NCBI GenBank assembly: GCA_951812955.1
Contig: OX638340.1
Span: forward strand, 3,136,001 to 3,200,000
Direction of reading: 5' to 3'
DNA: 64,000 nucleotides
Source of the DNA: an uncultured Gemmatimonadota bacterium
GTDB taxonomy: Bacteria > JAAXHH01
The translations under genes and the position numbers were made by a program. How positions within the stretch are numbered: the first letter of the stretch is position 1; every line of letters starts with the position of its first letter. Shown here piece by piece: positions 11,083-48,276 of this stretch. The notes under the pieces are model-generated. The model worked only from the letters and a program-made list of their open reading frames with translations. It did not search any database and had not been told where the DNA came from.

Positions 11083-11384
11083 ATGGGGTCGATCCTTTCG
11101 GCAACCTTTATCCGTTCGTACTGAAGCGGGCCTGCTGGCAAAAAGCGCCGGCGCCTGTTCACTAACGCCGCCCGATATGGCGCTAGTGGTACAACCCGGT
11201 AATATAGGTCATCGCGGGCATTCGGGCAAACGCATTTGACATGACGGTTCCGTGCATTGGGCGATTCCTCGCCTGCTGGCATCGCCCATTTCGGTTAAGT
11301 GATCCATCCTGCTAAACTTTCTGACTGACAACCATTGAAAGTTTCGCGGGGTATCGAAAAACCGGTAATAAAGTGGTGAAGGCG

Positions 11385-13326: not shown

Positions 13327-13355
13327 CTAATGTATTTCCTAGGTTGTAGGGTTGC

Positions 13356-17036: not shown

Positions 17037-17061
17037 GATTTCTCCTGGGGTTGGACTTCGG

Positions 17062-18918: not shown

Positions 18919-19291
18919 GCGGCTGCGCCAGGAGGTGTTGTCGGGGTGACGCGGATGAGGCCGTGTTTACTCGGAGTAATTGGGCTTGCTAGGAGCGGAT
19001 AGTGAGTAAAGCACTTACCTAGTATGTCGCCTTTGCATGCGACGGGTCCAATCCGACCGGCTACCGTTGCGTCGAAGGCGGCCTGAAGCCACTCAGTCGT
19101 TCAGCCTTGTCCTAAATTGTCAGCATGATTTGCTGAGATTGGTTTTCTTGATTCTCTACAACAAATGTCTGACGCTCAATTCTCATTGTAGCATCTGTCT
19201 ATCCAACGTAGCAACTATGAACTCCATCGAATAAACCATTCAAACATCCAAGCCGACGTACCTACAGGACATTGTTAGTCCGTTCAGAAGC

Positions 19292-20979: not shown

Positions 20980-20994
20980 TACTACTCACCTCCT

Positions 20995-23900: not shown

Positions 23901-26900
23901 CGGATCCGTTCTCGTAGACCACGCGGACGTGGTCGTCCCCGTCCTCGAAGGCCATGATGACGGTTTTTCCCGAAGATGCCGAGGCCGGATGAAAGTCGGC
24001 CCTTGCGGTGACGTGGCCGCCGACTCTTCCGGTTTCCAGGACGGAGGAGGGTCCGAGTTTCACGGACCGCTTCCCTGCCTTCTCCTGGTTATAGGCGACT
24101 CCCCCGCTGCCGGTGACCTGATCTTCGCCTGCCTGGGGGTCGATCGCAGCGCGGAACTCCGCGCCGGCCTTCGCCTGGAAACCGGTCGTCAGACGTACGC
24201 GTACACTGGCGCGCAGATCCACGGTCTCGCCGGAGGCGATGACGTAGGGGGCATCGGTTTCAAGACTGACGCCCTCCTCGAGGCGGTCGCCCGTGCCGCG
24301 GGCTACGATCCGGTGTCCGTCTCTGGAGAGATCCTTGTGGCCGTCCCTGGAAGGATAGGCGATAACGGTCTGCCGGTTCGGTCTGGCGGTGTTGTACGCG
24401 CTGAAACCGCCGATGCCGCGCGAGAAGCGGTGGTCCCGCTGGGCGGTTATGCGTCCCCTGCTGTCGCTTGCCTGAACGACACGCCTGAGACCGTCCCTCA
24501 GGTACCTCTCGGTATGTCCGTTCGGATCGGTGACGGCGACGGCGTCCAGCGTTACGGGATCCCAGGTGGTCATGACGCCGGGCTGAGCGCCCTGGGGCCA
24601 TACGCGCAGGTTGTCGAAAGCGGCGGCGCCTTGCAGCGCGCCGTTGGCCAGCTTCACGGCGTCTACGACGCCTCTGCGGCCCCTCATGTCCCAGACACCG
24701 GTTGTCGGATAGCGCACGCCGTCCACGTGGGCCCACCATCGCCCGTTCTTCCAGGCGATGCGCAGGCGGTGCCATCGGCCTGGTTCATAGTCGGCGCCGG
24801 TGTCTGTGAGGGCCCCGGACTGGATCACCCGGATGTGTCCGTCCCGGTCGAAGATCCACTGGATGCGGTTCCGTCCCAGGGTTATTTCGGTGCGCTCTCC
24901 GGTGGTCGGCACCCTGACGTCGATCTCGAACACGCCGGCGTCCAGGACGGTCAGGGTACGTTCGGCCACGGCATTGTCCACGGAGAGTGCGCCGCCCTCC
25001 AGGGTGATCGCGCTGCGCCGCCTGTTGTCGGTCCTGCGCCACGAGCCCGCGGCGGTGAGCGCGTCCCAGCCGGCAAGGTCGTCGAAGACCTCGGCGGTCA
25101 CCTGCGAGCCGGAGGCGCCGGTGAAGGCGGCCACGGGCCGCATCCTGCCGTAGCCCATGACCGTGGTGGTGACGGTGCCATGGGCGTCCTGTGCCTCGAT
25201 CAGGTTGCCGTAGGCGTCGTAGCCGGTGGCCACCTCCCGGTCGATCCACTCGCTCGGGCTCACCTGGCCGTCGCTGTCCTTATCGAGCCATACCGAGGTG
25301 GTATCCGGCATGACGATGCTACCTCCGTTGAACCGCCCATAGCGGTACCTGGTGGACTGCAGCCGGGCGCCGGATCCGTCCTTGACCGTGACCACGTGAG
25401 GGCGGTCCAGGATGTGTGCATTCTCCAGGAACACGTCATCGGGATCGTCGGCGTTCTTCCCGGCGACCTGGATATCCTTTGCGTATATCCTGATCTTGCG
25501 GTACACGGCCTGCTGCGGCTTGTATACGCCGGCGTAAAGCGTGAGATTGACTCGGGCGCTGTCCGTGTTCGAAGGTACAGGTACAAGGACGTCGAAGGAT
25601 TCCTCCTTCGGATCGGGCAGCCCGCCGGCTACAGGCACAACATGCGTTAGCGATGCTGCCGAACGGTAACCGCCGTCCTTCCAGTCGACAGTCACCGTGG
25701 CGCCGGCGTACATGTTGTCTCCGCCCTGCAACTGATCGGTCCCGAGGACGCCGCGGATGTGCAGCACATCGGTGCCGGACACGGAGAAGCGGCGGCCCTC
25801 GAAATCGTAGAATCCGGCGCTCTCAGTGACTGAGCCCGCATTCAGGAAGGCCTCCACCGAGGCCGTGGGCGGATCGTCCCGGCTCAGGAAGGCGGCGTGG
25901 ACCCGGTCACCGGTCGAAATGGATGTGTCGAGGACAGGCTGTCCGAAGGCCAGGGCCACCGGACTGCTTGTTACCGCATCTGCGTGATAGCTGGTCTCCG
26001 TGACGCGCAGGGTACGGGACCCGGATTTGAGCGTCTGCGTTGCCACTAGGCCGTTCCTGGCGTTGTGCGTCTGCTGTGTCGTGGTACTTACCCCGTCCCT
26101 GGTGGTCGTCGTCTCCCCTGCTCGCAACCAGTAGGCCTGCTGGGGGATACCCGGATGGTAGAAACTCTGCGACTCGCCGGTCCAGGTTCCCTGGGTCGTG
26201 ACCTGCCAGTCCGTCCGCTCCCGCTGGACCACTGCGCCAATACCGTCGTGCCAGGTTACCTCCTTGAGGAGCCCTCTTCGGATATCGCGTTCGGATTCGT
26301 GCTGCTTGTTCCTGGCCGAAAGCCCCAGGGCGTTCAAGTCGGCTTCGCCTACGAAGTTGCGGCGTATCTTGCCATGGGGCCCGGGCAGGATCTCGTCGAC
26401 GATGGGGAAAGTGATGCGGCGCACGCGATTGGCATTGACGGTCTCCATGACCGCATCGGTCTGGACGTAGACGAACGTAGTCGTATCCGCTACCGCGCCG
26501 CCCAAGCCGTCCGCGTCCCATATCCTGCGCTTGATGCGGCGGGACCGGTCGAAATAGGCGTCATCGTAAGCAAGCGAGGTGTCAGGATTTGTAATCTCCT
26601 CGTAGTCTATCTTCATCTCCCCGCCCGTGGGCGCGACGATCTTCGTAATACGGTAGCTGTCCGCAAGGGTGTTGGTGAAGCGATACGGCGGCAACTGGTC
26701 GCCGGCCGAGTTCCCTGTTCCCTTGATGGCGATTTCCTCGAGCAGCAGCGTGCGCGCATTATCCCCCGAGGCTACGGCAGGCCGCGGAGGACCGCCGTTG
26801 GCGCCGTTGTAGCGGAAGACGTATCGGGCGATCTGATTGCCATCCACGTCCGTAACCTTCAGGGCATCGAGACGGTGCGTACTCGCAAGGCCGTCGTACA

Positions 26901-28107
26901 TCCGGTAGTTCCGGTTGTCGGTGACCAGGTGATGGCCGTAGGACAGGGTCTCACCGGACGGCGTGTCGAAGTAGTTGTCATAGGTGATCACCACACCACC
27001 GCGAGAGGCAATCTGGATGTCGGGCCTGGCGCTGGTCTCGGTCGTGATCTTGCGTACGACCTTGCCATCTGTGCCGGCGAGGATGACCGTGTCGAGGTGC
27101 GCCGTGTTAAACGTCTTGACTACGGTCAGGTTGGTGCGGCTCTGACCAACCGTTATCCCGCCGGGAAACCGCGGGTCGATGTCCGCGTAGTCGAGCAGGT
27201 TGCGAAAAGAGCGCGTGGTTTCGGCCCGTTCCCTCGCCCTGTCCCGCACGGTGGTCACCGGACCGTCAGAGGTATACCGGAAGCGGATCGTGTTGCCGGC
27301 CTGGTCCCGGATCTCGGCCAGGTTCCACTGGTATACCATCTCGGGCATGAGTTCGTTGAAACCCCCCTGCTGTACCGCGCCGCCCTTGACGGTCTGGTTC
27401 ATGCCGTAGTCCTTGCCCGAGATCGTAACGGCGCCGAAAGTGTAGACCAGGCCCGATACGGTCTTGACCGTCCAGGTGGAGGAAAGCGGCGCATTCCTGT
27501 CGAAGTTCCACCTGATGTCCATGAAGCGCCTGTTCTCGGCGTAATAGACGTTGGTGGCGGGTAGCGCTACTCCCGGAGTGGCGGCGCGCTGCGAGTCGTC
27601 CAGTTGTCTGACGAGACGGTGGGAGCCGTCGGGAAGCACCAGGGAGAGATTGAAGGAAAAAGGATGGTTGATGGGACTACTCACGTCGCGCAGGTTGTAG
27701 CCGCCGGTCACCCTGATGGCCCCGAACTCCAGGTTCCATCCCAGGCCCACCCACGTGGCGTTATTGAGCGTAACCGTGCCCTTGCTGTTGGACTTGATCT
27801 GCTCGGCCGTGCCCAACTTGATCAGACGGTCGGTACCCGTCACCGCGCTGCTGTAGCGCATGCGAATGGGCAGGGACATGCCGCCCGCGCCTTCGACGTC
27901 GCCTAGCGGCACCGCGTAGGACCAGTTGCCCGAAAAGTAGTCAACCTGATCCGCGTCTATGACGCCGGAGAGGCTGTCGAAGTCGTAGGCGCTCTTGGAG
28001 GCATCTGTGATCGGCGTCTGCTGGCCGTGAACGATTGGCGCCGCCGTGGAGAGCATGAGGATGCCGATGAGCATCCTCACAGCGAAACAGCACAGGTGTC
28101 TTTGCAT
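20995..28107 (-). CDS. giant RHS/YD-repeat polymorphic toxin with Sec signal, SpvB-like N-terminal region and C-terminal toxin domain
   Basis: ATG at 28107 with SD AAAGGAG. Signal MQRHLCCFAVRMLIGILMLSTAAPIVHG. SpvB/TcB-like GLGWNLEFGAIRV. Long run of YD repeats. RHS core end YANNNPLKYVDPDG followed by a unique 200-aa tip. Confidence 0.85.
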   Translation of the reverse strand: MQRHLCCFAVRMLIGILMLSTAAPIVHGQQTPITDASKSAYDFDSLSGVIDADQVDYFSGNWSYAVPLGDVEGAGGMSLPIRMRYSSAVTGTDRLIKLGTAEQIKSNSKGTVTLNNATWVGLGWNLEFGAIRVTGGYNLRDVSSPINHPFSFNLSLVLPDGSHRLVRQLDDSQRAATPGVALPATNVYYAENRRFMDIRWNFDRNAPLSSTWTVKTVSGLVYTFGAVTISGKDYGMNQTVKGGAVQQGGFNELMPEMVYQWNLAEIRDQAGNTIRFRYTSDGPVTTVRDRARERAETTRSFRNLLDYADIDPRFPGGITVGQSRTNLTVVKTFNTAHLDTVILAGTDGKVVRKITTETSARPDIQIASRGGVVITYDNYFDTPSGETLSYGHHLVTDNRNYRMYDGLASTHRLDALKVTDVDGNQIARYVFRYNGANGGPPRPAVASGDNARTLLLEEIAIKGTGNSAGDQLPPYRFTNTLADSYRITKIVAPTGGEMKIDYEEITNPDTSLAYDDAYFDRSRRIKRRIWDADGLGGAVADTTTFVYVQTDAVMETVNANRVRRITFPIVDEILPGPHGKIRRNFVGEADLNALGLSARNKQHESERDIRRGLLKEVTWHDGIGAVVQRERTDWQVTTQGTWTGESQSFYHPGIPQQAYWLRAGETTTTRDGVSTTTQQTHNARNGLVATQTLKSGSRTLRVTETSYHADAVTSSPVALAFGQPVLDTSISTGDRVHAAFLSRDDPPTASVEAFLNAGSVTESAGFYDFEGRRFSVSGTDVLHIRGVLGTDQLQGGDNMYAGATVTVDWKDGGYRSAASLTHVVPVAGGLPDPKEESFDVLVPVPSNTDSARVNLTLYAGVYKPQQAVYRKIRIYAKDIQVAGKNADDPDDVFLENAHILDRPHVVTVKDGSGARLQSTRYRYGRFNGGSIVMPDTTSVWLDKDSDGQVSPSEWIDREVATGYDAYGNLIEAQDAHGTVTTTVMGYGRMRPVAAFTGASGSQVTAEVFDDLAGWDALTAAGSWRRTDNRRRSAITLEGGALSVDNAVAERTLTVLDAGVFEIDVRVPTTGERTEITLGRNRIQWIFDRDGHIRVIQSGALTDTGADYEPGRWHRLRIAWKNGRWWAHVDGVRYPTTGVWDMRGRRGVVDAVKLANGALQGAAAFDNLRVWPQGAQPGVMTTWDPVTLDAVAVTDPNGHTERYLRDGLRRVVQASDSRGRITAQRDHRFSRGIGGFSAYNTARPNRQTVIAYPSRDGHKDLSRDGHRIVARGTGDRLEEGVSLETDAPYVIASGETVDLRASVRVRLTTGFQAKAGAEFRAAIDPQAGEDQVTGSGGVAYNQEKAGKRSVKLGPSSVLETGRVGGHVTARADFHPASASSGKTVIMAFEDGDDHVRVVYENGSVKLESRVDGQTASSAFVPGYIRRWPWARVEMELQPTGTVNAWLYGHETTRFKGASASVSVPANWTPAFRARGETGNGYLANLYVGAAEMVASSFDGLARQIQTRASAGANDIVAQTNYNRVNKPETLLGPVYRAPSHTYGALARADAAERITQVSYDDDPLLRVSQVIPPGHTQDNAVDTRYGNWGIESGQGRSFQTVDDEKGVATTSVYDTYGRMRYAIADSAGTDAATRNNKTSFVYDALDRLISTTMPERGTTARPLTATTTYAYDTLGRMTSRHHPDAAGPVRYKYDDLGRVRFSQDARQKAAGTGNATEKITYTVYDAFGRVTRVGEAAATFASLDPESSYPFERDTTSWRSRMTYDDGDAAGGGPNYTQGRLTNVEENTDADATAEVSYLYAYDHLGNVRVKQVDIDGLTGDKTVEYVHDLAGRITRLIYPDGSQARYAYDSAGRLSRVWDAQGKTLAAYTHTAAGNIATHVVGDGVGDVAGDGAITGSYTYNAREWVTDLNYAGTFKSALTYDHVGNVTRQVYRHGSAASITADYDYDDLYRITGFDVSGGTSQDYTYDRNGNITSLVTGTSTLTYNYTSASTPNRLDSTTGTGGQNYAYNPNGWMTRKGTDTVSYDYRGLTTGYGSARYLMDPDRRRVKKTVGTVTTYYLRGPGGSVLAEYSGQMLSARYVYAGSRRIARIAGSSASYFLTDHLGSTRSLVDEEGTVTAAYDYWPYGDILASGGSEQTHFRFTGHERDAESGLDYMLARTYAYNIGRFLRPDPMQDEYPGRSPYAYANNNPLKYVDPDGRVIKLSSDLSIVERKRFEGYFANLRKTEIGNQLYNHVHKATQEFVFDIAPDGETYRGLAQIHFRYFPAFARTIDEIEEVIIPQTGSVAYINEALIKGNAGMVESTMIEELFHIAEALGKLESIESTTKFYKQTELEKAMYDYDDQPHEIRAKEAQEKFRKQWEELEKQQQQ

Positions 28108-28293
28108 GGTGAACTCCTTTAACATGGATGAATTGGAAAGGGGGTTGAATGAAACGCGCGATGTCAACGCATGGATGTATCGGATGAAGACCGGCATGAT
28201 GCGCTCCTTGATGGCGGACGGAACAGCCGCCCGGCATGGATCCTGCAACTCGTTATCGGGATGTGAGACTGAAGTCTTTGCGGGCATGAAATG

Positions 28294-28336
28294 AAAAACC
28301 CCCGTGCCGTGGGTCGATCAGAAGTAGCACGGGGAC
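28294..28336 (-). terminator. Rho-independent terminator downstream of 28566..29390
   Basis: Minus strand reads CCCCGTGCtacttctgatcgacccacGGCACGGGGGTTTTT. Confidence 0.55.
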
Positions 28337-28390
28337 GCTAGAAGGTCCGCGGGGTGCGGGTCCGCTAAGGGGACGCGAGGGTATTCTGAT
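28294..28390 (+). repeat. 97-bp repeat copy A (terminator hairpin + conserved 60-nt segment)
   Basis: About 96% identical to 35844..35940. CCCCGTGC..GCACGGGG stem with a T-run on the minus strand. Confidence 0.8.
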
Positions 28391-28565
28391 GCGGTTTTGT
28401 GATGAGCCTATGCGTGTTGCACAGGCGTTACGGTGTATCGATTCCTCTTTGTTGGTGTCGTCTTTGGCAAAAGATCGTATTCTCCGAACTATTCATGGCC
28501 CCGAAGGACCGGCTCCTCGACCGGTCCCCCGGGGTGGTGGCGCTGTGCTGCTCACACAGCGTCGA

Positions 28566-29390
28566 TCACCGATTCTTCTCCAGATCTGAAAGGCGCCTCT
28601 CCAGCGACTCGATGTAATGCTGCTGCGCGGCAAGCTGCCGCGTCTGCTCGTCGATGAACTTCCGCTGGGAAGCCAGTGCCCTGTGCTGGTCGATGGTGTA
28701 GAGCATGAGCTCCTCCACTTTCTCCAGCAGCCGGGTCTGCATCCGGCCGACGCTGACGCCTTCGGCTTCCATCTCGGCGCCCGGGGCGATGCCCGGAAGA
28801 TGACCGCGGGTTCGGATATGTTCTTTCAACGCGTCCAGGGACATGAGGTCGTAGTCCTCGTCGAACACGTAGTCGGCGGGCGTGACGTCCTCTATGTGGA
28901 TCTCCTCGGCCTTGATGCGGCCGTCCACGACGAGCCGCTCGTCCGGATCGTCCACGCCGATGCCCACGTTGCCGGTCAGCCGATAGACGTTGTCGTCCGA
29001 CACCGACCAGGGACTGCCCGCCAGCGCCGTGACGCGGAACGTCGCACTTGGCGAGTTCGTCATGGTACCCAGCTTCACCGTTACGTTCACCCGGCCCGGC
29101 TTAGCCGCTGCAATCGTCAAAGTGTTGCCGGAAACGCTGACCGTCACCAGATTCATGTCCGAAGACGTGGCGCTGAACCCGAGCGTGCCGATCATGCCGG
29201 TGACATAGATTGACAGATCCAGTTCAAGCTGGCCGCCGACCGCCAGGAACTGCGCCGGGATGGACTTCAGCGTCGGCGTCGACTGGTCGGGGACGGGTTC
29301 GTCTAACGCGTCTGCAAGCAGGGCTCCGGCATGCACCTTCGGTGTGATAAGCGCTGCCAGCATTGAAATGGTCAATAGAATCCTAAGCAT
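28566..29390 (-). CDS. secreted protein: Ig-like domain + conserved C-terminal fibre-like coiled-coil module
   Basis: ATG 29390 with SD AAAGGAG. Signal MLRILLTISMLAALITPKVHA. C-terminal ~165 aa about 70% identical to the C-terminus of the adhesin (WSVSDDNVYRLTGNVGIGV...LLEKVEELMLYTIDQH). Confidence 0.6.
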   Translation of the reverse strand: MLRILLTISMLAALITPKVHAGALLADALDEPVPDQSTPTLKSIPAQFLAVGGQLELDLSIYVTGMIGTLGFSATSSDMNLVTVSVSGNTLTIAAAKPGRVNVTVKLGTMTNSPSATFRVTALAGSPWSVSDDNVYRLTGNVGIGVDDPDERLVVDGRIKAEEIHIEDVTPADYVFDEDYDLMSLDALKEHIRTRGHLPGIAPGAEMEAEGVSVGRMQTRLLEKVEELMLYTIDQHRALASQRKFIDEQTRQLAAQQHYIESLERRLSDLEKNR

Positions 29391-29461
29391 GAATTGCTCC
29401 TTTCTGCGGTTAATGGAAATTGTGTCTCTGCGATCCTCATGGGACTGCGGGTTTCCGGTCA

Positions 29462-32400
29462 TCATTGCTCCAACCTTTCCAGGCGATGGTCCAGCTGCCT
29501 GACAACCTGGTGTTGCAGCTTGAGCCGCCGCCGCTGCGAATCGATACTATGGCCCTGCGCGCGGAGCTGTTCGTGCTGGCCTATGACGTAAAGCGAGAGC
29601 TCTTCGATCTTCTCCAGCAGCAGGGTTTGCATCCGGCTGATGCCGATACCCTTGGCCTTCATCTCCACGCCGGAGGCCACGCCCGGCAGGTGGCCATGGC
29701 CCCGGATGTGACGCGCCACGTCCTCCAGGGGCATGAGGTCGTAGCCCGGCCCGAACACGTAGTCGGCAGGCGTCATCGGAACGTACACCTCCTCGGCCCT
29801 GATCTTGCCGTCCACGACGAGCTTCTGATCCGGACTGGAAACGCCGATACCCACGTTGCCGGTAAGCCGGTAGACGTTCTCGCCCGACACGGACCATGGA
29901 GTCGAGAATGGATCCATCACCGTGATCATGAAGGACACAGACGCGGGATCGCACCCATCATTTTCGGCCGTATCCGTAGCGGTAACCGTCACGGTTGCGA
30001 TCCGGCCGACCGATTTCGGATCGATCTTCAAGACGCTGCCTTCTATGCTCAACACCGCGATCTCCGGGTTCGGAGACGTGACCGTGATCTCGATTTTGTC
30101 CTGATCGAGTCGTTCGAAGTGTTCCGTCAGATCGATCGGCGTTTTCCCCGCGCCTGCGAACAGCGTCTGGTCCTGGATGGGAGCGTCCGTGATCGCGGCC
30201 GGACAGGGCAGGATCACCGTGATTACAAAGGATTGCGTCACCGGATCGCAATCCTGCTTGCTGACCGTAACGCTTAGCGTATCCGTACCGGCGGCCGCAG
30301 GCGTGACCGTCAGCGTGTCTCCGGCAAGACTTGTAGTCGTTACGGTCGAATCGGTGGAGTTGACTACGTAGTCCGGGTCGAATTCCGCCGGAAGCGAGAA
30401 ATATGTCGTCAGATCGATCGGGAGGGCGTCCCCTCCTACGGTGAGCCTCTGATCCAATATGCTGCCCATCAGCGCGGGGCAGGTTGCCGGTGGCGGCGGT
30501 TCGGTCACAGTGAGCGTCGCCGTGCCGGAAACATTGTCCACCGCTGCCGAAATCGTCGTGGAACCCGCATCCTGCGCCGTGGCCAATCCCGCGGTGCTGA
30601 TCGTCGCGACCGCCGTGTCGCTGCTCGTCCAGGTAAAAGTCTTGCCCGGGATCTCCATGTTGTCTGAGTCATAAGCAGTAGCGGAGAACTGCTGCGTCTC
30701 GCCCTCCTCGACCGTCGCTTCAGATGGACTCACCTTCACCGACGATGCCATCGGCAGCGTTGGCGGCGGTTCCACCACCCTGGCGTTGAATACCTGGCTG
30801 GCTCCTGTTCCGCATCCAACTCTGGAAACTGTAACTGTAACCTGAGCGTTACCGGCGATACCCGGAGATATAGCCAGGGTGCTATCCGTTCGACTGGCTC
30901 TCGCTACGTCAGCGTTCGACGACACGATCGTGTACGCAATGTTGCTCTTGTCGAGGTTGGTGAAATGCGAGTTGAGGTTCACTTCAACATCGCTTCCACC
31001 AATAATCATCGACACGTCTCTGCTGGGATGCATCTGCTTCACCGCGGGACATTCTGCAATCGGCGGTACAGGATCAACCGTTACGTTGAAGTCCCGCGTT
31101 ACGTCGGTGCACCCGGCTGCGCTGACCGTGACGATGACCTTTCCGGTATGCCCCTGGGTCTTGGGCTCGATTGTCAGCGTATGTCCGGATATGCTCACCG
31201 TCGCTGTGCCCGGGCTCGGATTATTGGCACTGTAGGTCGGGGTGACACCCTGTGGTATTTCGAAGTAGTCCGATACGTCCATCGTCACCGAATCACCGCC
31301 TGCAACCATCGCGGGGGGTGTAATGACGACAGTGTTTGCCGTCGGGCAGGCTGGCGGCGGTGGCGGCGGCGGAGGTCCGACGGATACGTTGAAGTCCCGC
31401 GTGACGCCGGTGCATCCGTTCGCGCTGGCCGTGACAATGACCTTTCCGGTATCCCCCTGGGTTATGGGTGTGATCGTCAGCGTGTCTCCGGATATGCTCA
31501 CCGTCGCTGTGCCCGGGCTCGGATTATTGGCACTGTAGGTCGGGGTGACGCCCTGAGGTATCGTGAAATAGGTCGATACGTCGATCTTTACCGAGTCCCC
31601 ACCCGCAACCATCGCAGGGAGCGTAATGGCGACGGTGTTTGCCGTCGGGCAGGCTGGCGGTGGCGGCGGCGGCGGAGGTCCGACGGATACGTTGAAGTCC
31701 CGCGTTACGCCGGTGCATCCGTTCGCGCTGGCCGTGACAATGACCTTTCCGGTATCCCCCTGGGTTATGGGTGTGACCGTCAGCGTGTCTCCGGATATGC
31801 TCACCGTCGCTGTGCCCGGGCTCGGATTATTGGCACTGTAGGTCGGGGTGACGCCCTGAGGTATCGTGAAATAGGTCGATAGGTCGATCTTTACCGAGTC
31901 CCCACCCGCAACCATCGCAGGGAGCGTAATGGCGACGGTGTTTGCCGTCGGACAGGAGGGTGGTGTCGTCTGTTCAGGCCCCACGACGACTCTGAAATCC
32001 TCCGATATACGCAGCCCTTCGGTATCGGTTGCGGTCACCGTGACCTTGCCGATCTCTCCTTCGGATTTGGGGGCCACCGTCACCTCGCTGCCCGATATGC
32101 TTACTTTGGCGACTGAAGAATCCGGGTCGTCTACCGAGAAGGTGAGGCTGTCTCCATCAGCATCGGAAAAATTGCCCGACACGTCGAAACTCTCCGACGG
32201 ATCGCCCACCCTTATATTTACGTCAGCAATGCTCCCCACAATCTCCGGAGCACGATTCATCACAGACACGCTGATGCTCTGCGTCGCCGACGCCTTGTCA
32301 ATGTCCTCGGCTTTTACCGTAATCGTCGCACTTCCTGAATTGCCGGAGGTGATGGTCACCGTACCGCCGGACACGCTGGCGGTGGCCACGGCCGTATTGG

Positions 32401-34663
32401 ACGATGAGGCACTGTATGTGAGCGCATCGCCGTCGGGATCGGTGAACTTACCCGAGACGATTACGTCCTGAGTGTGCCTGTTCTTGTAGAGGGTGACAGC
32501 ATCGATCGAACCCTGCGCCTGAGGGGATTTGTTCCGCACGGTGACCGTAAAATCGGTCGAAACGGAAGCGCTGAGTGCATCAGTCGCGGTCACTGTAACG
32601 GTCGCGTCTCCGCCGTCATCTTCAGATTCGATCGTCGCCGTACTTCCAGTAACGCTGGCGGTAACGATGTTCGTATTGGACGATCCGGCCGAGAAGGTCA
32701 TTTGATCGCCGTCGGGATCCGAGAAGTGCCTGGATACGTTGAAGCTATATGAGCTGTTCTTGTTTAACGATCTGTCAGGTATACTCTGCGATACTACGGG
32801 ACGCCTGTTGACCACCTCTACGGCAAAACCATGTCTGTTGCTGGCATCATCCGTATCCGTCGCAGTCACCGTGACTCTGGCTGAGCCAAGTACTCCTGGA
32901 TCGACCTCCACGTCGCTACCCGATACGCTGACCGTAGCCACGGAGGAATCGGACGAAGTGGCAGTAAAGGTGAGCGCGTCGTTGTCCGGATCGCGGAAAT
33001 TGTCCGAAACGTCGGTACTCTTTGTAGCCTGGCCCCTGTAGAACGTCATTTTCGAAATATCACCCTGTGGTTGCGGTATTCTATTGATCACGGTGACGTC
33101 AAAATCCTGCGTACCGGTGGCATCGTCGGTATCTTCGGCGGTAACCGTGATCGTGGCCGTACCTTTTACCCCCGACCTGACGGTCACCGTGCTGCCTGAT
33201 ACTCTGACGGTCGCCACGCTCGTTTCGTCCGATGTTGCCGAGTAGGTGAGGGCGTCGCCGTTGGGATCGGAGAACTTGCTTGAGACAGAGACGTTCCGGG
33301 TTTTTCCTTTCTTGTACAGAGTTATATTGGAGATGGTACCCACTGCCCGAGGCGGTTGATTGGTCACCGTGGCGGTGAAATCCTGTACGGCGGTCTCTCC
33401 ATCGGGGTCCGTGGCCGTTACGATGATCTTGCCCGTTGAGCCGGTAGCTACGGGTGCTATCGTGACGGTGCTTCCCGATATGCTCACCGTGACGATCGAA
33501 GGATTCGGGGAGTTGACCGAATAAGTGAGGGTATCGTTATCCGGATCGGAGAACTTGCCGGACACGCTGCGGGTTGCCGAGGAACCGCCCTTGTTAAGGG
33601 AGACGTCGCTGATGGATCCTACGGCTACAGGCGCCATGTTCGCGGGCGGTGGAGGCGGAGGAGCCGCCTCCACGGTGGCGGTAAAGTCCTGGGTGGCGGT
33701 GAGGCTGTCAGGGTCGGTGGCCGTTACGATGATCTTGCCCGTCGTGCCGGCGGCTACCGGCGCTATCGTGACCGTGCTTCCCGATATGCTCACGTTGGCA
33801 ATCGATGAACTCGGGGAATTGACCGAATAGGTGAGGGTGTCGCCGTCGGGATCTGAGAACTTGCCTGACACACTGCGGGTTGCCGAGGTGCCGCCCACCT
33901 GCAGCGTCACATCGGAGATGGACCCGACCGCTGTGGGCGCCCTGTTCGCTGGTGGTGGCGGGGGTGGCGGAGGAGCCGCCTCCACGGTGGCGGTGAAGTC
34001 CTGTGTGGCGGTAAGGCCGCCCGGGTCTCTGGCCGTGACGATGATCTTGCTCGTCGTGCCGGCGGCCACGGGCGCGACCGTCACCGTACTTCCCGCGATG
34101 CTCACGTTGGCAATCGATGAACTCGGGGAATTGACCGAATAGGTGAGGGTGTCGCCGTCGGGATCGGAGAACTTGCCGGACACGCTGCGGGTTGCCGAGG
34201 TGCCGCCCACCTGCAGCGTCACGTCGGAGATAGACCCTACGGTAGTGGGTGCCCGGTTCGCCGGCGGGGGCGGCGGAGGGTTCTGCACCGTGGCAGTGAA
34301 GTCCTGTGTGGCGGTAAGGCCGCCCGGATCCCTGGCCGTGACGATGATCTTGCTCGTCGTGCCCACGGCCACGGGCGCGACCGTCACCGTACTTCCCGCG
34401 ATGCTCACGGTGGCAATCGACGAACTCGGTGAATTGACCGAATAGGTGAGCGTGTCGCCATCGGGGTCTGAAAAGTACGACGAGGCGTTTACCGTTGCCG
34501 AGGAGCCGCCTACGTAAAGCGTCCCGACGTCGATATAGCTGACCGTCTGCGGCGCCCGGTTCTGCGGAGGCGCGGGGCCGGGTGGAAACCCCGGCACTGC
34601 TCCTCGCGCGGCCTGTCCCGGCCACGTTGCGAGCAGCATGAAACAAAGTAAAACGCGAAGCAT
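29462..34663 (-). CDS. giant cell-surface protein with >12 tandem Ig/cadherin-like ~100-aa repeats, poly-Pro linkers and a C-terminal fibre-like module
   Basis: Signal MLRVLLCFMLLATWPGQA after SD AAAGGA (ATG 34663). Repeats of ...FSDPDGDTLTYSVNSP...VTVAPVAAGTT..IIVTA.D.... PPPPPP linkers. Near-identical DNA repeats. Confidence 0.75.
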   Translation of the reverse strand: MLRVLLCFMLLATWPGQAARGAVPGFPPGPAPPQNRAPQTVSYIDVGTLYVGGSSATVNASSYFSDPDGDTLTYSVNSPSSSIATVSIAGSTVTVAPVAVGTTSKIIVTARDPGGLTATQDFTATVQNPPPPPPANRAPTTVGSISDVTLQVGGTSATRSVSGKFSDPDGDTLTYSVNSPSSSIANVSIAGSTVTVAPVAAGTTSKIIVTARDPGGLTATQDFTATVEAAPPPPPPPPANRAPTAVGSISDVTLQVGGTSATRSVSGKFSDPDGDTLTYSVNSPSSSIANVSISGSTVTIAPVAAGTTGKIIVTATDPDSLTATQDFTATVEAAPPPPPPANMAPVAVGSISDVSLNKGGSSATRSVSGKFSDPDNDTLTYSVNSPNPSIVTVSISGSTVTIAPVATGSTGKIIVTATDPDGETAVQDFTATVTNQPPRAVGTISNITLYKKGKTRNVSVSSKFSDPNGDALTYSATSDETSVATVRVSGSTVTVRSGVKGTATITVTAEDTDDATGTQDFDVTVINRIPQPQGDISKMTFYRGQATKSTDVSDNFRDPDNDALTFTATSSDSSVATVSVSGSDVEVDPGVLGSARVTVTATDTDDASNRHGFAVEVVNRRPVVSQSIPDRSLNKNSSYSFNVSRHFSDPDGDQMTFSAGSSNTNIVTASVTGSTATIESEDDGGDATVTVTATDALSASVSTDFTVTVRNKSPQAQGSIDAVTLYKNRHTQDVIVSGKFTDPDGDALTYSASSSNTAVATASVSGGTVTITSGNSGSATITVKAEDIDKASATQSISVSVMNRAPEIVGSIADVNIRVGDPSESFDVSGNFSDADGDSLTFSVDDPDSSVAKVSISGSEVTVAPKSEGEIGKVTVTATDTEGLRISEDFRVVVGPEQTTPPSCPTANTVAITLPAMVAGGDSVKIDLSTYFTIPQGVTPTYSANNPSPGTATVSISGDTLTVTPITQGDTGKVIVTASANGCTGVTRDFNVSVGPPPPPPPPACPTANTVAITLPAMVAGGDSVKIDVSTYFTIPQGVTPTYSANNPSPGTATVSISGDTLTITPITQGDTGKVIVTASANGCTGVTRDFNVSVGPPPPPPPPACPTANTVVITPPAMVAGGDSVTMDVSDYFEIPQGVTPTYSANNPSPGTATVSISGHTLTIEPKTQGHTGKVIVTVSAAGCTDVTRDFNVTVDPVPPIAECPAVKQMHPSRDVSMIIGGSDVEVNLNSHFTNLDKSNIAYTIVSSNADVARASRTDSTLAISPGIAGNAQVTVTVSRVGCGTGASQVFNARVVEPPPTLPMASSVKVSPSEATVEEGETQQFSATAYDSDNMEIPGKTFTWTSSDTAVATISTAGLATAQDAGSTTISAAVDNVSGTATLTVTEPPPPATCPALMGSILDQRLTVGGDALPIDLTTYFSLPAEFDPDYVVNSTDSTVTTTSLAGDTLTVTPAAAGTDTLSVTVSKQDCDPVTQSFVITVILPCPAAITDAPIQDQTLFAGAGKTPIDLTEHFERLDQDKIEITVTSPNPEIAVLSIEGSVLKIDPKSVGRIATVTVTATDTAENDGCDPASVSFMITVMDPFSTPWSVSGENVYRLTGNVGIGVSSPDQKLVVDGKIRAEEVYVPMTPADYVFGPGYDLMPLEDVARHIRGHGHLPGVASGVEMKAKGIGISRMQTLLLEKIEELSLYVIGQHEQLRAQGHSIDSQRRRLKLQHQVVRQLDHRLERLEQ
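31020..31930. repeat. three tandem ~303-bp near-identical repeats inside the adhesin gene
   Basis: Identical antisense ORFs 31323..31538 and 31626..31841. The internally repeated ORF 30965..31882 shows the same period. Confidence 0.7.
33525..34445. repeat. three tandem ~306-312-bp near-identical repeats inside the adhesin gene
   Basis: Antisense ORFs 33525..33830, 33831..34142 and 34143..34445 are near-identical. Confidence 0.7.
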
Positions 34664-34737
34664 GATATATCCTTTCATGGTATGCATCTGTTGGCAGATG
34701 GATTTGTACCGGCCGGGCCCTCGCCCGGTCCGGGTGG

Positions 34738-35118
34738 TCAGTAGCTCCATATCGTCGGCCTGGGAATGCCCGGCGCCTTGTCGAGGTCGTCGACGTGCAC
34801 GTAGCGGCTCCGGAAGTCCCCCCGCTGCCTGATGCCGATGCCGGTGAAACCGAGCATCAGCGCCATGCGGACGAGCCGGTGCGCCTTGTCGCCCGATATC
34901 GCGATGTCGACGGCCCGGCCGGCCAGATGGGCCGAACGGGACCTGCCCCCCACCTTGGCGTTGTGCTGGGGCGATCTGTACGCCGAGGTGACGATCAAAG
35001 GGAAACCGAGTTCCTCGCGCAGCAGCACGAGCCTGAGCATGAATCGCTCGTCCATCTCGTGCCTGCCGGTGTCCGGCGAGGAAAGGATCTGGTTCGGGAA
35101 GTACGGCCACGACTTCAT
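34738..35118 (-). CDS. peptidase M15 (VanY/YcbK-like zinc D-Ala-D-Ala carboxypeptidase fold), endolysin-like
   Basis: SAYRSPQHNAKVGG, SAHLAGRAVDI, YVHVDD zinc-ligand motifs. ATG 35118 preceded by SD AAGGAGG. Confidence 0.7.
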   Translation of the reverse strand: MKSWPYFPNQILSSPDTGRHEMDERFMLRLVLLREELGFPLIVTSAYRSPQHNAKVGGRSRSAHLAGRAVDIAISGDKAHRLVRMALMLGFTGIGIRQRGDFRSRYVHVDDLDKAPGIPRPTIWSY

Positions 35119-35247
35119 TTGCAAACCTCCTTGCCTTCCTTCCCCGGGACCCGATTTGTCGAACCCTCGGGGAAAGAAGACCTGTATGTACTGCGGTGAA
35201 CGATATGAACGCTTCTGCCAGGCGAACCGGATGACCCGGGTACGCAT

Positions 35248-35496
35248 TCACTTGAGCCGGCGGATCGTGAATGCGGGAGTATCCCATGCAGGATCACCTG
35301 CGTCCGCGTTCGGGGTGCTATGCGGAAGGACGCCGGACCGCCGGGTGGTCGCCCGGACGGTCCGCTCCTTCCCCTTCAACTGCTTGACGGCGGCTGACGG
35401 ACCGCCGTGTGCGGGCTTCCGATCGTTGCCGGGAGCCCTTGTATCTGCTTTGAGACCAACGCTGGTCGATCCTGCATCCGCGCGTTGCCGCTTCAT
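35248..35496 (-). CDS. small basic hypothetical protein
   Basis: 82-aa K/R-rich ORF. Start overlaps the stop of 35493..35702 (ATGA). Weak. Confidence 0.25.
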   Translation of the reverse strand: MKRQRADAGSTSVGLKADTRAPGNDRKPAHGGPSAAVKQLKGKERTVRATTRRSGVLPHSTPNADAGDPAWDTPAFTIRRLK

Positions 35497-35702
35497 TCCT
35501 GCTCCTTGTGCCTATCGAGCACGACCTCGTAGATCAGATCGATCTTGGCGGTCAGGTTCTCGATGTCCCGTTCGATCTTCGACAGGCGGACCTCGCGCAT
35601 GGTCATACGATCCACGAAGGGTGCGATGAACTTGAAAATGAAAATCCACAGCGCGACCAGGACGGCGATGACGACGATCCAGACCGATACGTTTTCCGGC
35701 AT
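35493..35702 (-). CDS. small membrane protein: single TM helix + C-terminal coiled coil (holin/spanin-like architecture)
   Basis: ATG 35702 with SD AGGAG. VWIVVIAVLVALWIFIF then REVRLSKIERDIENLTAKIDLIYEVV. Confidence 0.45.
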   Translation of the reverse strand: MPENVSVWIVVIAVLVALWIFIFKFIAPFVDRMTMREVRLSKIERDIENLTAKIDLIYEVVLDRHKEQE

Positions 35703-35843
35703 GTCGAGTTGCTCCTGATCCGGACTTGCGGCAGGCAGAGAAGTGAACAGGACGCCGCAACGGGCGAGCGGCCCGGTGCTTGTACCGGCCGGGCGCGCCT
35801 GCTTTCGTGCGGTCGAGTGAACAGGGTTTTCGGGAAAGGGCAT

Positions 35844-35940
35844 AAAAATCCCCGTGCCGTGGGTCGATCAGAAGTAGCACGGGGACGCTGGAAGGTCCGC
35901 GGGGTGCGGGTCCGCTATGGGGACGCGAGGGTATTCTGAT
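35844..35940 (+). repeat. 97-bp repeat copy B
   Basis: Near-identical to 28294..28390, same orientation. Minus-strand hairpin + T-run. Confidence 0.8.
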
Positions 35941-35979
35941 TCAGTTTTAAATCACGCCCGTGCGCGTTACACGAGCAGG

Positions 35980-36019
35980 TTGACAGATATACTATACACG
36001 TGATTAGTATATCTGTCAA
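35980..36019. promoter_or_regulatory. 40-bp perfect palindrome TTGACAGATATACTA-n10-TAGTATATCTGTCAA (operator or bidirectional terminator candidate)
   Basis: 15-bp perfect inverted arms around tacaCGTGat. Followed by CAGGGTTTTTC. Each arm begins with TTGACA. Confidence 0.45.
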
Positions 36020-36068
36020 CAGGGTTTTTCAAAAAAACACATTTGTTCTATTTTACTGCATGCAAGGC

Positions 36069-36488
36069 TCATGCTCCTTTCAATGCGCCCTGGTTCGTTG
36101 CCTTGCACCTGCGGCACCTGATGCTCCAGGGACGAGAGAAGTATCTGCCCAGCACGCGGCCGCATTTCCAGCACCGGGGCTGGTGGTCCGTAACCGGCGC
36201 GGGCCCCGTGGGGTTGCCGTTCAGATCCCCGACTCCCTTACCGTCGATATACGGATCACTCGGGGTCGCATCCCCGGTCTCGGCGAACCGCTCGTCTGAT
36301 CGGGAACCATCTTGCCCGTCCGATCGGGAATCGACGGACCATTCCGTCCCGCTGCTCCCGCTCGGTGTTATGGTCGTACCCTCCCGGTTCCGGCGCGTTC
36401 CGCACACCGGGCAGATCCAGTAGGGATACTCGCCGGACACGCGGAGCATGGACCGGCCACAGCATCTTAGATTGTTGCCGTGTGACAT
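36069..36488 (-). CDS. small protein with two zinc-ribbon-like Cys clusters flanking a D/G/S-rich linker
   Basis: CC-x15-CPVC near the N-terminus and CWKC-x17-CRRC at the C-terminus. SD GGAGAGAGG before the ATG. Overlapping plus-strand ORFs have implausible composition. Confidence 0.4.
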   Translation of the reverse strand: MSHGNNLRCCGRSMLRVSGEYPYWICPVCGTRRNREGTTITPSGSSGTEWSVDSRSDGQDGSRSDERFAETGDATPSDPYIDGKGVGDLNGNPTGPAPVTDHQPRCWKCGRVLGRYFSRPWSIRCRRCKATNQGALKGA

Positions 36489-37045
36489 AAGAAACACCTC
36501 TCTCCGTCCTCCCGGACGGCATAGACCGTGCGGGATTTAGCAGGCTCCTGCACGGCAAGTAGATATGAATATATACACAACAAATGTTTAGTAAACTTCG
36601 CCACCTGTCAAGACTTTAATGCATTATTTAAACTATCGATAAATTGTAGAATTCTCGATTTTGCCTGCTTCGTTTGAAAGCTGGATCCCGAAGTTATTGT
36701 AACCTGGCGGGTTGCGCGGTCATCGATTGCATGCTGGCGAAAGAATTCGACACGCAATCAGATACACCCTGGGAAGGCATCAGTTACTTCGTGCACGAAT
36801 TGGAGGGGAAAATAGCTCGGTGGAATCGGCCGGGGAGTGGGCATAGCGGTTTGAAGGGGAATATGGATCGGCGGAATCGGCCGGGGAGTGGGCATGGCGC
36901 GTCCGCCGCTTAACGAGATGGTATTACTTACGGGAAGACCTGCGAGTCAGAGAACACACTGACGGGTATCGTGCGAGGTATCGTGCGATACTTAAGTTGT
37001 ACAATTGTACAGGTTAATCTTCCTGGTCATCTTCCAGTATTGCCG

Positions 37046-39060: not shown

Positions 39061-39137
39061 GATGGTGCGCGACTTAGCTGATGCGCCGCGACGGCTGTGA
39101 TCGTCGCGATGGTGCGCGACTTAGCTGATGCGCCGCG
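39061..39137. repeat. two 30-bp direct repeats (period 47 bp) plus a degenerate third copy at ~39196..39219
   Basis: ATGGTGCGCGACTTAGCTGATGCGCCGCGA x2 in the intergenic region between two minus-strand genes. Confidence 0.6.
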
Positions 39138-39226
39138 ATTTTGCGCGACGACGATGGCCGCGATTGGCGGTAATGGTAAGCCGCAATGATGCTTCACGAT
39201 GGTGCACAACTGAGCTCGAGATCGGC

Positions 39227-42658: not shown

Positions 42659-43378
42659 ATGGATTCGACGGGTCAATCGGACTGGTTAATGGCAAAATTG
42701 GACGCACACTACAAGGGACACCGTAGCCGACTCCGTGAGCGGTTCCAAAAGAGTGGATTTGGTGGATTCGCTGAGCACGAGGTCATTGAGTTACTGTTGA
42801 CGATGGCCATGACCCGTTCGGACGTAAAACCACAGGCCAAGATGTTGCTTGAGCGTTTTGGCAGTCTGCGAGGCATTTTGGATGCACCAGTATCCGAACT
42901 GCAGTCGGTAAAGGGAATTGGTGAGATTTCAGCCATACTACTGAAAGTTATCCGTGAATCGGCGACGATGTATTTATTGGAAGCATCAAAAGAAACAGAA
43001 GTCCTCAGCGATCCGGAGCGGCTCAGCAATTTCTGGCGCATGCGAATCGGCCATCTTAAGAACGAAGTGTTCGCTGTCGCTTACCTTGATTCAGCTTATC
43101 GGTTGTTGCGTAATGGCGTAGAAACGCTTCAGGAAGGTACGATAGACCGTGCAGCGGTGTACCCGCGCCGCGTCGTGGAGGCGGCACTTAATCGCCAGGC
43201 GGCGGCCCTCGTGCTCGCGCACAACCATCCGAACGGCGATGTCGAGCCGAGCGAACAGGACAAGATGATAACACGCGCCGTCACGCTTGCAGCCGAAACC
43301 ATCAGCATACGAGTCGTCGATCATCTAATAGTGTCGGCCTCGGAGACTTTCAGTTTCAGAAAAGCGGGACTGCTATGA
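42659..43378 (+). CDS. radC: RadC-like JAB/MPN domain protein
   Basis: JAMM motif LAHNHPNGD, ExnS region. N-terminal HhH-like segment (GIGEISAILL). Confidence 0.8.
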   Translation: MDSTGQSDWLMAKLDAHYKGHRSRLRERFQKSGFGGFAEHEVIELLLTMAMTRSDVKPQAKMLLERFGSLRGILDAPVSELQSVKGIGEISAILLKVIRESATMYLLEASKETEVLSDPERLSNFWRMRIGHLKNEVFAVAYLDSAYRLLRNGVETLQEGTIDRAAVYPRRVVEAALNRQAAALVLAHNHPNGDVEPSEQDKMITRAVTLAAETISIRVVDHLIVSASETFSFRKAGLL

Positions 43379-46239: not shown

Positions 46240-46306
46240 TGTCCAAGGAATTCTTTATTCTCATCCAAAATCGGATGATGTTTGGCAAACCAAAAGGAAC
46301 CTGAAA

Positions 46307-48274: not shown

Positions 48275-48276
48275 CC

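Follow-up and report, generated by a model that had tools for sequence, protein, structure and literature searches.

Transcriptional riboswitches with a terminator as expression platform include the c-di-GMP-I and c-di-GMP-II classes, which precede adhesin and virulence genes. The element described here, present twice in the window (the whole 64,000-nt stretch of DNA that was analysed), resembles terminator-platform riboswitches in being a 5′ leader whose conserved domain consists of several helices and is closed by P1, in the 5′ strand of its terminator being common to a sensing-domain helix (with an alternative, translational platform in some members), and in its multiple copies per genome, which head a coherent gene set. 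It differs from known riboswitches in that it matches no Rfam 15 family by sequence or structure, its stems are invariant instead of covarying, its distribution is very narrow and it carries its own conserved promoter; a ligand may not exist.

Resemblances to the RAT (BglG/SacY) and LoaP (NusG paralog) leaders include an imperfect antiterminator with internal loops (here P3) that overlaps the 5′ strand of the terminator, near-identical copies at the head of multiple long operons per genome, and conservation at the level of sequence, as expected for recognition by a protein. Unlike in these leaders, no CAT/PRD or NusG-like gene adjoins any copy (Pfam, 67 upstream ORFs), the sole recurrent neighbour codes for a double zinc-ribbon protein, and the conserved RNA spans about 135 nt (P0 and P1–P3) as compared to the 29-nt RAT. 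EAR (eps-associated RNA) and other processive antitermination RNAs are likewise conserved structured RNAs that go with very long operons whose products are secreted or located at the surface, and, as with EAR, some copies of the element are intergenic inside an operon (e.g., copy 1 of the window). In contrast to EAR, with which it has no sequence similarity (Rfam), the element has a built-in terminator that shares strands, which suggests a local switch and not a lasting modification of the polymerase. The genes behind the element, in which Rhs and Tc-like (SpvB) toxins are paired with a small membrane protein and an M15 peptidase, recall the holin/endolysin-dependent release loci ('type 10 secretion') of Tc and other large toxins and may have a comparable function; this likeness concerns the regulon and not the RNA, and we know of no such RNA leader described for holin/endolysin toxin-release systems.

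The two repeats in the window

The direct repeats described in an earlier note on this DNA were recovered at 28294–28390 and 35844–35940, in the same orientation and with 94 of 97 bases identical (96.9%); a repeat scan of the window lists them as pair D14 (28277–28398 and 35827–35948, spacing 7550). A chance origin is not expected for a repeat of such length and identity. Their make-up was confirmed, as both hold a conserved GC-rich segment and a terminator hairpin (CCCCGTGC-n19-GCACGGGG followed by an A-run on the plus strand, i.e., a T-run on the minus strand), and so was the minus strand as the functional one, where hairpin and U-tract lie, while for the plus strand RNAfold shows no advantage over shuffled sequence. 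The distances to the minus-strand genes also held, with 142 nt between copy 2 and the ATG of the small membrane protein (35702), and 187 nt between copy 1 and the Rhs ATG at 28107; an alternative, earlier Rhs start (28197) is 97 nt from copy 1. Upstream of the 97 bp the two copies remain alike, in a hairpin whose strands differ by compensatory changes (P0, Table 1). In a covariance-model search of the window the two copies scored 112–114 bits (E about 1e−27), and nothing besides them exceeded 14 bits.

That the repeats bracket a 7.5-kb block is correct but incidental, as each copy leads its own following unit: copy 2 heads the membrane-protein/peptidase/adhesin operon and copy 1 the next unit, rhs.

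Table 1 Features of the two leaders and their neighbouring genes (positions in the window)
Feature	Position	Strand	Details
Double zinc-ribbon protein gene (139 aa)	36072..36488	-	directly upstream of copy 2; recurs adjoining the element
Dedicated promoter, copy 2	35991..36045	-	UP-like A/T-rich tract TTTTTTTGAAAAA, -35, spacer motif, -10
P0 5′ hairpin, copy 2	35956..35976	-	GCUCGUGU-AACGC-GCACGGGC
Core, copy 2 (aptamer-like domain)	35867..35940	-	covariance model 112 bits; RNAalifold consensus
Intrinsic terminator, copy 2	35844..35884	-	CCCCGUGC(U)-loop-(G)GCACGGGG + U5; -19.2 kcal/mol
Membrane protein (69 aa), first gene after copy 2	35496..35702	-	called 69-aa gene likewise placed in L042, L043
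M15 peptidase, endolysin-type family	34741..35124	-	tblastn 90% identity to L027 protein, which matches Peptidase_M15_3
Giant Ig-like adhesin	29462..34700	-	Big_9/Big_2/cadherin-like; start approximate
Short paralog of adhesin C-terminus, last gene before copy 1	28566..29465	-	repeats D13, D16
P0 5′ hairpin, copy 1	28406..28426	-	GCCUGUGC-AACAC-GCAUAGGC; compensatory changes vs. copy 2
Core, copy 1	28317..28390	-	covariance-model match 113.8 bits
Intrinsic terminator, copy 1	28294..28334	-	stems 28300-28307 / 28327-28334, U-tract 28294-28298; -18.4 kcal/mol
rhs toxin gene behind copy 1	20995..28197	-	Pfam RHS_repeat

Distribution and conservation of the family

The notion of a two-copy element gave way to that of a family, with about 40 copies found in 11+ species genomes (11 of Latescibacterota type, with 1–5 copies each) and about a dozen metagenome contigs. 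An exact 22-mer search returned 28 true copies, spread over 11 species genomes, and further copies came from metagenome contigs. Several metagenome contigs (L001, L011, L037, and L038) break off within the element, as is usual for repeats, and the element accounts for the assembly breaks and the mis-called extended ORFs at these loci. Phylogenetically the family is narrow, its hosts are uncultivated, probably sponge-associated bacteria, and no copy was found in phages, plasmids or viral contigs. Rfam 15 gave no match over the whole window at gathering thresholds and, around both copies at E ≤ 10, only chance-level matches, none of which covers the element; a leader RNA family with this built-in stop signal is previously undescribed.

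Between paralog classes, the nearly invariant core of ~75 nt is 94% identical and the flanks 55–58%, the latter being at the level of shuffled sequence (56%), which indicates that selection acts on the core. Within it, GCGUCCC and GCGGACC blocks (two of each) are invariant even amid variable surrounding positions, and the variable segments, whose length differs by 1–3 nt, coincide exactly with predicted hairpin loops. The diverged copies L037 and L040 keep the strands of P2 and P3 as well as the terminator, and have P1 strands that are replaced and still complementary (UCAAGU/ACUUGA).

Promoter and 5′ hairpin

Each unit is arranged as a promoter, a covarying 5′ hairpin (P0), an A-rich linker, the core, and a GC-rich hairpin with a U-tract. 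The copy-2 promoter (-35 TTGACA at 36019–36014, -10 TATAGT at 35996–35991, a conserved motif in the spacer) scores 11/12 against the sigma-70 consensus. TTGACA-N17-TATAGT stands at a fixed distance from the element, after the upstream gene, in 24 of the first 33 copies, the motif TTGAC-N9-WAACA-N3-GTATAGT occurs only adjoining the element (window and 20 loci), and the promoter region contains an inverted repeat. No consensus promoter was found upstream of copy 1, and the nine copies (of 33) that are missing their own would therefore act only within a longer transcript. A 3′UTR element, as had been suggested, suits these promoter-less copies only and not the 24 that have a promoter. The P0 position is occupied by a hairpin in every copy, with a different sequence each time, and the proposed covariation check on homologs supported it (RNAalifold; compensatory pairs CG:24/UA:5 and GC:12/AU:7/GU:4).

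Alternative folds of core and terminator

For the core, RNAalifold on 29 copies gave a consensus structure with three proposed helices, P1 (AUCAGAA/UUCUGAU), P2 (GUCC/GGAC), and P3 (GCAC..G.GGAC/GUCC.C.GUGC). The segment that follows has the sequence of an intrinsic terminator, namely an 8–11 bp CCCCGUGC/GCACGGGG stem followed by U5–6 (-18 to -24 kcal/mol); it is strong in 28 of the first 33 copies, and for the two minus-strand hairpins of the window RNAfold gives stems of 9–11 bp and about -18 to -19 kcal/mol. A simple terminator scan missed them because their loop of 17–19 nt exceeds the 8-nt limit of the scan. The 5′ strand of the terminator (CCCCGUGC) is at the same time the 3′ strand of P3, so that the two folds are mutually exclusive, and the terminator loop holds the 3′ strand of P1. 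With folding energies of -28.7 kcal/mol for the terminator fold and -18.2 kcal/mol for the junction fold, the former is the more stable, which points to OFF as the default state. The computed pairings thus suggest a riboswitch-type platform, in which the terminator fold would exclude that of the sensing domain. In most copies P1 does not strictly exclude the terminator, since a pseudoknot is possible.

The element has the leader position and conservation of a riboswitch-type domain, and its helices differ in how they vary. P0 covaries; the covariation check gave no support for P2 and P3, in which every pair is invariant across copies, and P1 shows only one-sided changes (A-U to G-U) in standard copies. 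The core fold consequently rests on thermodynamics and one diverged lineage, and for the core a fold of four hairpins matches the three-way junction in stability (-18.8 vs. -18.2 kcal/mol). Stems that never vary are uncommon in metabolite riboswitches and rather point to sequence-specific recognition.

UUCUG has a further pairing partner in seven copies, a CAGAA located downstream, by which the terminator takes up the strands of both P1 and P3. Three of these (L003, L024, and L029) have no U-tract, and the hairpin covers a GGGGA 4–7 nt before the AUG, which represents a predicted second type of platform that sequesters a Shine-Dalgarno-like sequence.

Genes behind the element

Each of the 30 assessable copies precedes an Rhs, Tc-like, adhesin or AAA+ operon and has the same orientation as it. 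One gene set consists of Rhs or Tc-like (SpvB) toxins, another of a small membrane protein, an M15 peptidase and a giant adhesin, and a third of a phage-related small protein with a ClpX-like ATPase. One protein under the element has distant relatives in neighbourhoods of phage lysis or packaging genes, and the 69-aa membrane protein of the window may be holin-like, judging by its position. Toxins, adhesins and a peptidase as neighbours give no hint of a metabolite ligand. The rhs gene has two in-frame starts with SD and ATG (28197 and 28107), followed by a signal-peptide-like N-terminus, and its leader sequence is conserved in L002, L009, L015, and L030.

Class D copies have 51–91 nt between the U-tract and the ATG and thus no room for another promoter; within the window, no promoter-like site was found between terminator and gene. 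Co-orientation, the class D spacing and the existence of promoter-less copies together argue for an action in cis.

Proposed switch and competing explanations

Structured RNA proved to be the best kind of explanation among those offered in the earlier note. The two repeats are probably paralogous copies of a new cis-acting attenuator, either riboswitch-like or protein-dependent, located in the minus-strand 5′ leader of the following operon, and the leader most likely decides whether the following genes are transcribed. Transcription would start at the strong dedicated promoter (copy 2) or arrive by read-through from the operon upstream (copy 1). By default, the hairpin and U-tract would stop the RNA polymerase, leaving only an RNA of ~135 nt, with the toxin, adhesin and peptidase genes off. 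The core could instead adopt the three-helix junction of P1, P2, and P3, with P3 taking CCCCGUGC and P1 taking the UUCUGAU of the terminator loop. An effector, which might be a small molecule or else a dedicated RNA-binding protein, would hold the junction fold during the passage of the polymerase and thereby block the terminator, so that transcription enters the operon and the effector would mean ON.

Since an RNA of ~135 nt with a strong promoter and terminator of its own could also act in trans, the copies might be multicopy sRNA genes, whose C-rich segments would base-pair with ribosome-binding sites rich in G, or by which a protein is titrated, the proximity to toxin genes being secondary. 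The consensus promoter (24/33), the strong terminator (28/33), the 5′ hairpin, A-rich linker and U-tail, the multiple copies per genome, and an invariance at the sequence level, stems included, that suits a pairing or binding surface would all agree with this. We nevertheless consider trans action unlikely, as every assessable copy is co-oriented with and near a downstream gene, class D leaves just 51 nt for the gene's own promoter, the nine copies without a promoter and the three without a U-tract all have a perfect core, and 9-nt complementarity to the core is not in excess in the 64-kb window (34 vs. ~35 expected). Even less probable is an element that works at the DNA level, with the GCGTCCC/GCGGACC blocks as an array of transcription-factor sites (roadblock or operator) downstream of the promoter and the hairpins incidental. 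The invariance of the blocks next to variable neighbours and the inverted repeat in the promoter region would fit such an array, yet length changes of 1–3 nt in the loops would shift the spacing of DNA sites and not RNA hairpins, the strand-specific terminator with its U-tract is kept, P0 covaries, and alternative expression platforms are sensible only for RNA.

An ordinary repeat, be it a duplicated terminator/3′UTR, a REP/MITE-like sequence or the scars of an inserted 7.5-kb adhesin cassette, is largely refuted and has very little credibility left. The core is 94% conserved over species and paralogs amid randomised flanks, gene context and orientation are fixed, and the element has its own promoter. 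The order leader, operon, leader, rhs recurs in another species (L011, spacing 7433) and the similarity ends at the element borders, which makes recombination scars unlikely; a MITE/REP-like origin is at odds with the lack of terminal inverted repeats and target duplications, the single orientation toward the downstream gene, 1–5 copies per genome at positions common to species, and the absence from plasmid, phage and viral collections. These outweigh the discrete gene block flanked by two copies, the location of copy 1 after the stop codon of the adhesin paralog, and the four contigs that end inside the element.

If the proposed attenuator is real, it represents a new family of regulatory leader RNAs and a further candidate for an orphan riboswitch or antiterminator, and it would place on one switch several of the gene sets that cost a symbiont most and are most dangerous: Rhs and Tc-type toxins of 7 kb, adhesins of 6 kb, and a module with a cell-wall peptidase.

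The zinc-ribbon neighbour

No CAT/PRD or NusG-like antiterminator gene was found by Pfam among 67 upstream ORFs and the downstream genes, which leaves the double zinc-ribbon protein as the only candidate partner or regulator of the element; its C-terminal ribbon VTDYQPRCWKCGRVLGKYFSRPWSIRCRRCKATN, like the RNA core, hardly varies. An RfaH ops/JUMPStart leader was also considered and rejected: the ops motif GGCGGTAG occurs four times in the window, which is chance level, and never in or near either leader. More tentatively, the element and the zinc-ribbon protein may form a new RNA-protein antitermination system, or the element alone an orphan riboswitch class, either of which would be a master switch in uncultivated, animal-associated Latescibacterota that co-induces polymorphic toxins (Rhs, Tc-like) together with giant adhesins and a holin/peptidase release module of phage origin. 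If the proposed attenuator is real, the 75-nt RNA, its defined promoter and the candidate partner protein would offer a concrete handle on how uncultivated host-associated bacteria time the deployment of toxins and adhesins. In L037, L040, and L041, a more distant lineage, a diverged element precedes the zinc-ribbon gene, which would imply feedback control.

Structure and conservation of the repeated element

The two segments that the earlier note had described as direct repeats were recovered at the same positions and in the same orientation (94/97 identical), and a repeat search of the window placed slightly longer stretches around them in one family, 7550 nt apart. The minus-strand terminator hairpin proposed for them also held: on that strand, the element ends with CCCCGUGC-loop-GCACGGGG followed by U5, and RNAfold predicted the hairpin in both copies (z of about −2 for the 141-nt segment), while the plus strand of either copy folded no better than its shuffles. 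The similarity extends farther upstream than had been noted, as a further hairpin is present in both copies, 15 nt away on the 5′ side, GCCUGUGC..GCAUAGGC in copy 1 (before rhs) vs. GCUCGUGU..GCACGGGC in copy 2 (before the membrane protein, M15 peptidase and adhesin operon), and the differences between them are compensatory. Copy 2 has a sigma-70-type promoter (11/12, TTGACA-17-TATAGT). A perfect 15-nt inverted repeat, TTGACAGATATACTA / TAGTATATCTGTCAA, lies across this promoter, creates a mirror promoter-like site on the plus strand, and resembles operators of dimeric regulators; weaker inverted repeats (TTGACAG...CTGTCA) occur at other element copies.

Throughout the family, the same parts follow each other. 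The promoter, TTGAC(A)-N17-TATAGT, stands at a fixed distance in 24/33 copies; an A/T-rich tract precedes it and its spacer contains a conserved WAACA. This composite motif was found only beside the element in the window and in 43 loci. The 5′ hairpin (P0) is present in every copy with at least 10 different sequences, and RNAalifold recorded compensatory changes at two of its pairs (CG:24/UA:5 and GC:12/AU:7/GU:4). An A-rich linker joins it to a core of ~75 nt (AUCAGAAUACCCUCGCGUCCC-loop-AGCGGACCCGCACCCCGCGGACC-loop-AGCGUCCCCGUGCUACUUCUGAUC), where variation is confined to two short segments that also differ in length and are hairpin-loop-like, and the terminator (GC-rich hairpin and U-tract) is found in 28/33 copies. 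Between representatives of different gene contexts, core identity was 94%, vs. 58% in the 100 nt downstream and 55% at 100–200 nt upstream, values that match shuffled sequence (56%); the core is thus under strong selection at nearly every base.

Positions of the features in the window
Feature	Position	Strand
Copy 1, repeat	28294-28390	−
Copy 1, extent from repeat search	28277-28398	−
Copy 2, repeat	35844-35940	−
Copy 2, extent from repeat search	35827-35948	−
Copy 2 promoter	36019..35991	−
Inverted repeat across copy 2 promoter	35980-36019	
Stop-free leader stretch, copy 1	28108-28293	
Stop-free leader stretch, copy 2	35703-35843	
Zinc-ribbon protein gene	36488..36072	−
Zinc-ribbon gene leader	36489-36612	−
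Zinc-ribbon gene promoter-like site	36595..36568	
Tandem 49-51-nt repeat	36800-36899	
ThiD/ThiN	8199-9545	−
ClpX-like AAA+ ATPase	9571-11082	−
Recurring Rhs core sequences	11380-23437	
Low-GC troughs	12800-13600, 16000-16800, 19200-21600	
Two 31-nt direct repeats	39061-39138	
Restriction/defence-like run	42659-51120	+

Distribution of the family

The element matched no Rfam 15 family, with nothing relevant at gathering or permissive thresholds, and nothing on it was found in the literature. The two-copy option of the earlier note was overturned by an exact scan with the central 22-mer against one genome per GTDB species, which returned 30 loci, 28 of them full copies in 11 MAGs (1–5 per MAG) labelled Candidatus Latescibacterota, 'Gemmatimonadetes' or just 'bacterium', whose names we read as indicating sponge or coral origin. 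The remaining two loci, in actinomycetes, were chance matches within unrelated sequence. A degenerate scan of JGI metagenomes, with a pattern designed to let helix P3 vary, added two copies on near-identical contigs only, hence no covariation was gained, and about eight more copies, three of them diverged, were found on contigs reached via a neighbouring protein. Plasmids, phages and viral contigs yielded no copy. With a covariance model of 32 copies, the two known copies in the window scored 112–114 bits (next best 13.7 bits), and no hidden additional copies emerged there or in the loci. The public contigs L001, L011 (7943), L037 (3361) and L038 end within or just past the element, which suggests that, being multicopy, it interrupts short-read assembly at toxin loci. 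The observation is genuine and of more interest than a repeat in two copies would be: it represents a new family of predicted leader RNAs, narrow in distribution, with a built-in terminator.

Genomic context

Where the flanking sequence sufficed (30 copies), the element and the next gene downstream were always co-oriented. These genes were sorted into class A (rhs, as at window copy 1), class B (a 69-aa membrane protein, M15 peptidase, giant Big-domain adhesin and its short paralog, as at window copy 2), class C (a second rhs type, with DUF6443), class D (a 155-aa basic protein, ClpX-like AAA+ ATPase and ThiD/ThiN) and class E (an SpvB/Tc-like protein and an rhs-like protein). Upstream, a Pfam search of 67 ORFs revealed no recurrent regulator family and diverse metabolic genes instead, so that the element belongs to the genes downstream. 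The window's order of leader B, operon, leader A and rhs is shared by another species (L011, spacing 7433), which argues against a recent insertion of the cassette, for which the repeats had been offered as possible scars.

As the U-tract of class D copies is just 51–91 nt from the start codon, class D genes must be transcribed through the terminator, and in the window the interval between terminator and start holds no promoter-like site. The consensus promoter is absent from nine copies, window copy 1 among them, which are located behind the stop codon of a co-oriented upstream gene; these can act only as part of a longer transcript.

Back to the terminator, the downstream gene's frame is stop-free in 30/30 copies (the other two frames average ~0.7 stops), an AUG directly after the U-tract is usually in frame with it, and automatic gene prediction joins the leader to the ORF (e.g., a 231-aa call in the diverged locus L040). 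A coding N-terminal extension was rejected and the leader judged non-coding, given ~40% protein identity vs. > 90% in the gene body and a 2-nt indel within the segment in one locus (L026).

Predicted fold and probable regulatory mechanism

RNAalifold predicted three core helices from 29 copies: P1 (AUCAGAA/UUCUGAU), P2 (GUCC/GGAC) and P3 (GCAC..G.GGAC / GUCC.C.GUGC). The 3′ strand of P3 is also the 5′ strand of the terminator, whose loop holds the 3′ strand of P1, so the terminator and the junction fold are in competition. At −28.7 vs. −18.2 kcal/mol, the terminator fold is favoured by ~10 kcal/mol; termination would be the default, and read-through would depend on stabilisation of the junction fold. 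Seven copies have a further pairing, of UUCUG with a CAGAA downstream, whereby the terminator hairpin takes up both the P1 and the P3 strands. Three of these (L003, L024, and L029, in the same gene context in three genomes) have no U-tract, and their hairpin covers a GGGGA 4–7 nt before an AUG. Such a combination of one conserved domain with two expression platform types is known from riboswitch families.

From sequence analysis, the likeliest reading is that the element attenuates toxin, adhesin and lysis-like operons conditionally and in cis. Mechanisms of this kind are known, unlike the family itself, its regulon and its possible protein partner. A main weakness of this reading is a core without covariation, as P2 and P3 are invariant, P1 shows only A-U to G-U changes in standard copies, and a four-hairpin core fold is as stable as the junction fold. 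Comparative support for P1 comes from the diverged copies only (L037, L040/L041), which keep GCGUCCC..AGCGGACCCGCACC..GCGGACC..GCGUCCCCGUGCUAC and the terminator, with both P1 strands swapped for a new complementary pair (UCAAGU/ACUUGA in L037).

A multicopy sRNA acting in trans retains some plausibility, since most copies possess both promoter and terminator, but it leaves unexplained the promoter-less copies, those without a U-tract and the class D geometry, and 9-mer complementarity in the window stayed at chance level with no excess. An array of DNA-level operators would account for the invariant blocks; the length-variable loops, the covarying P0 and the strand-specific terminator speak against it. 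The conservation pattern, the constant orientation and context, and the dedicated promoter contradict a REP/MITE-like repeat, a scar or a plain 3′UTR, including the MITE/REP-like and 3′UTR options of the earlier note. A DGR template/variable repeat, a tRNA, a tmRNA and an ops motif were also discarded (no reverse transcriptase, non-coding position).

For the attenuator, a candidate protein partner of the RNA is the product of the gene that immediately precedes copy 2 in the same orientation; it has 139 aa, two zinc-ribbon motifs and no Pfam, NCBIfam or PDB match. This gene, or a 3′ remnant of it, precedes the element in all class B loci and at four copies of other classes, and in homologs the basic C-terminal ribbon is almost invariant; the linker is acidic and variable. 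The AlphaFold model (pLDDT 56) was too poor for a fold search. The gene accompanies the element in many genomes, and in some of them a diverged element copy stands before it. In L037, from the most distant lineage found, a diverged element precedes the zinc-ribbon gene and a standard one follows it. Closely upstream of that diverged element are genes for a PDZ/HisKA_3 histidine kinase and two response regulators of GerE type (L037 1-1958), a possible source of upstream signalling input. In the window, the promoter-like site of the zinc-ribbon gene has the ACTAAACATTTGT string of the element promoters, and the gene's leader contains a P0-like hairpin (GCCGUGC..GCACGG), with neither core nor terminator. 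The 1-kb spacer upstream of this gene holds a tandem repeat (88% identical).

Distant homologs of the class D 155-aa protein (40–57% identity) occur in the phage-like contigs L033, L034, and L036 beside an M15_3 peptidase, a GH108 lysozyme, endonuclease VII and a DNA-packaging protein, and the protein is probably of phage origin; these contigs lack the element and gave no route to diverged leaders. Together with the class B membrane protein and M15 peptidase, these homologs suggest that the element may control toxins along with a phage-derived lysis-like module, presumably resembling the holin/endolysin-dependent release of large toxins, which we take as a lead only.

Other features of the window

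Downstream of the main rhs gene, Rhs core sequences recur every 3.5–3.9 kb and the GC content falls to 0.42–0.49 in several troughs, a pattern typical of orphan rhs toxin tips accompanied by immunity genes. The ClpX-like and ThiD/ThiN genes follow this array; in other genomes the pair comes after a class D element and the 155-aa protein, both missing here, and the rhs array may have displaced a class D leader. Two perfect 31-nt direct repeats lie 47 nt apart, and a plus-strand run of RadC, a UvrD-type helicase-PD-(D/E)XK nuclease fusion, an N6/N4 DNA methylase and a ResIII helicase looks like a restriction/defence cluster unrelated to the element.
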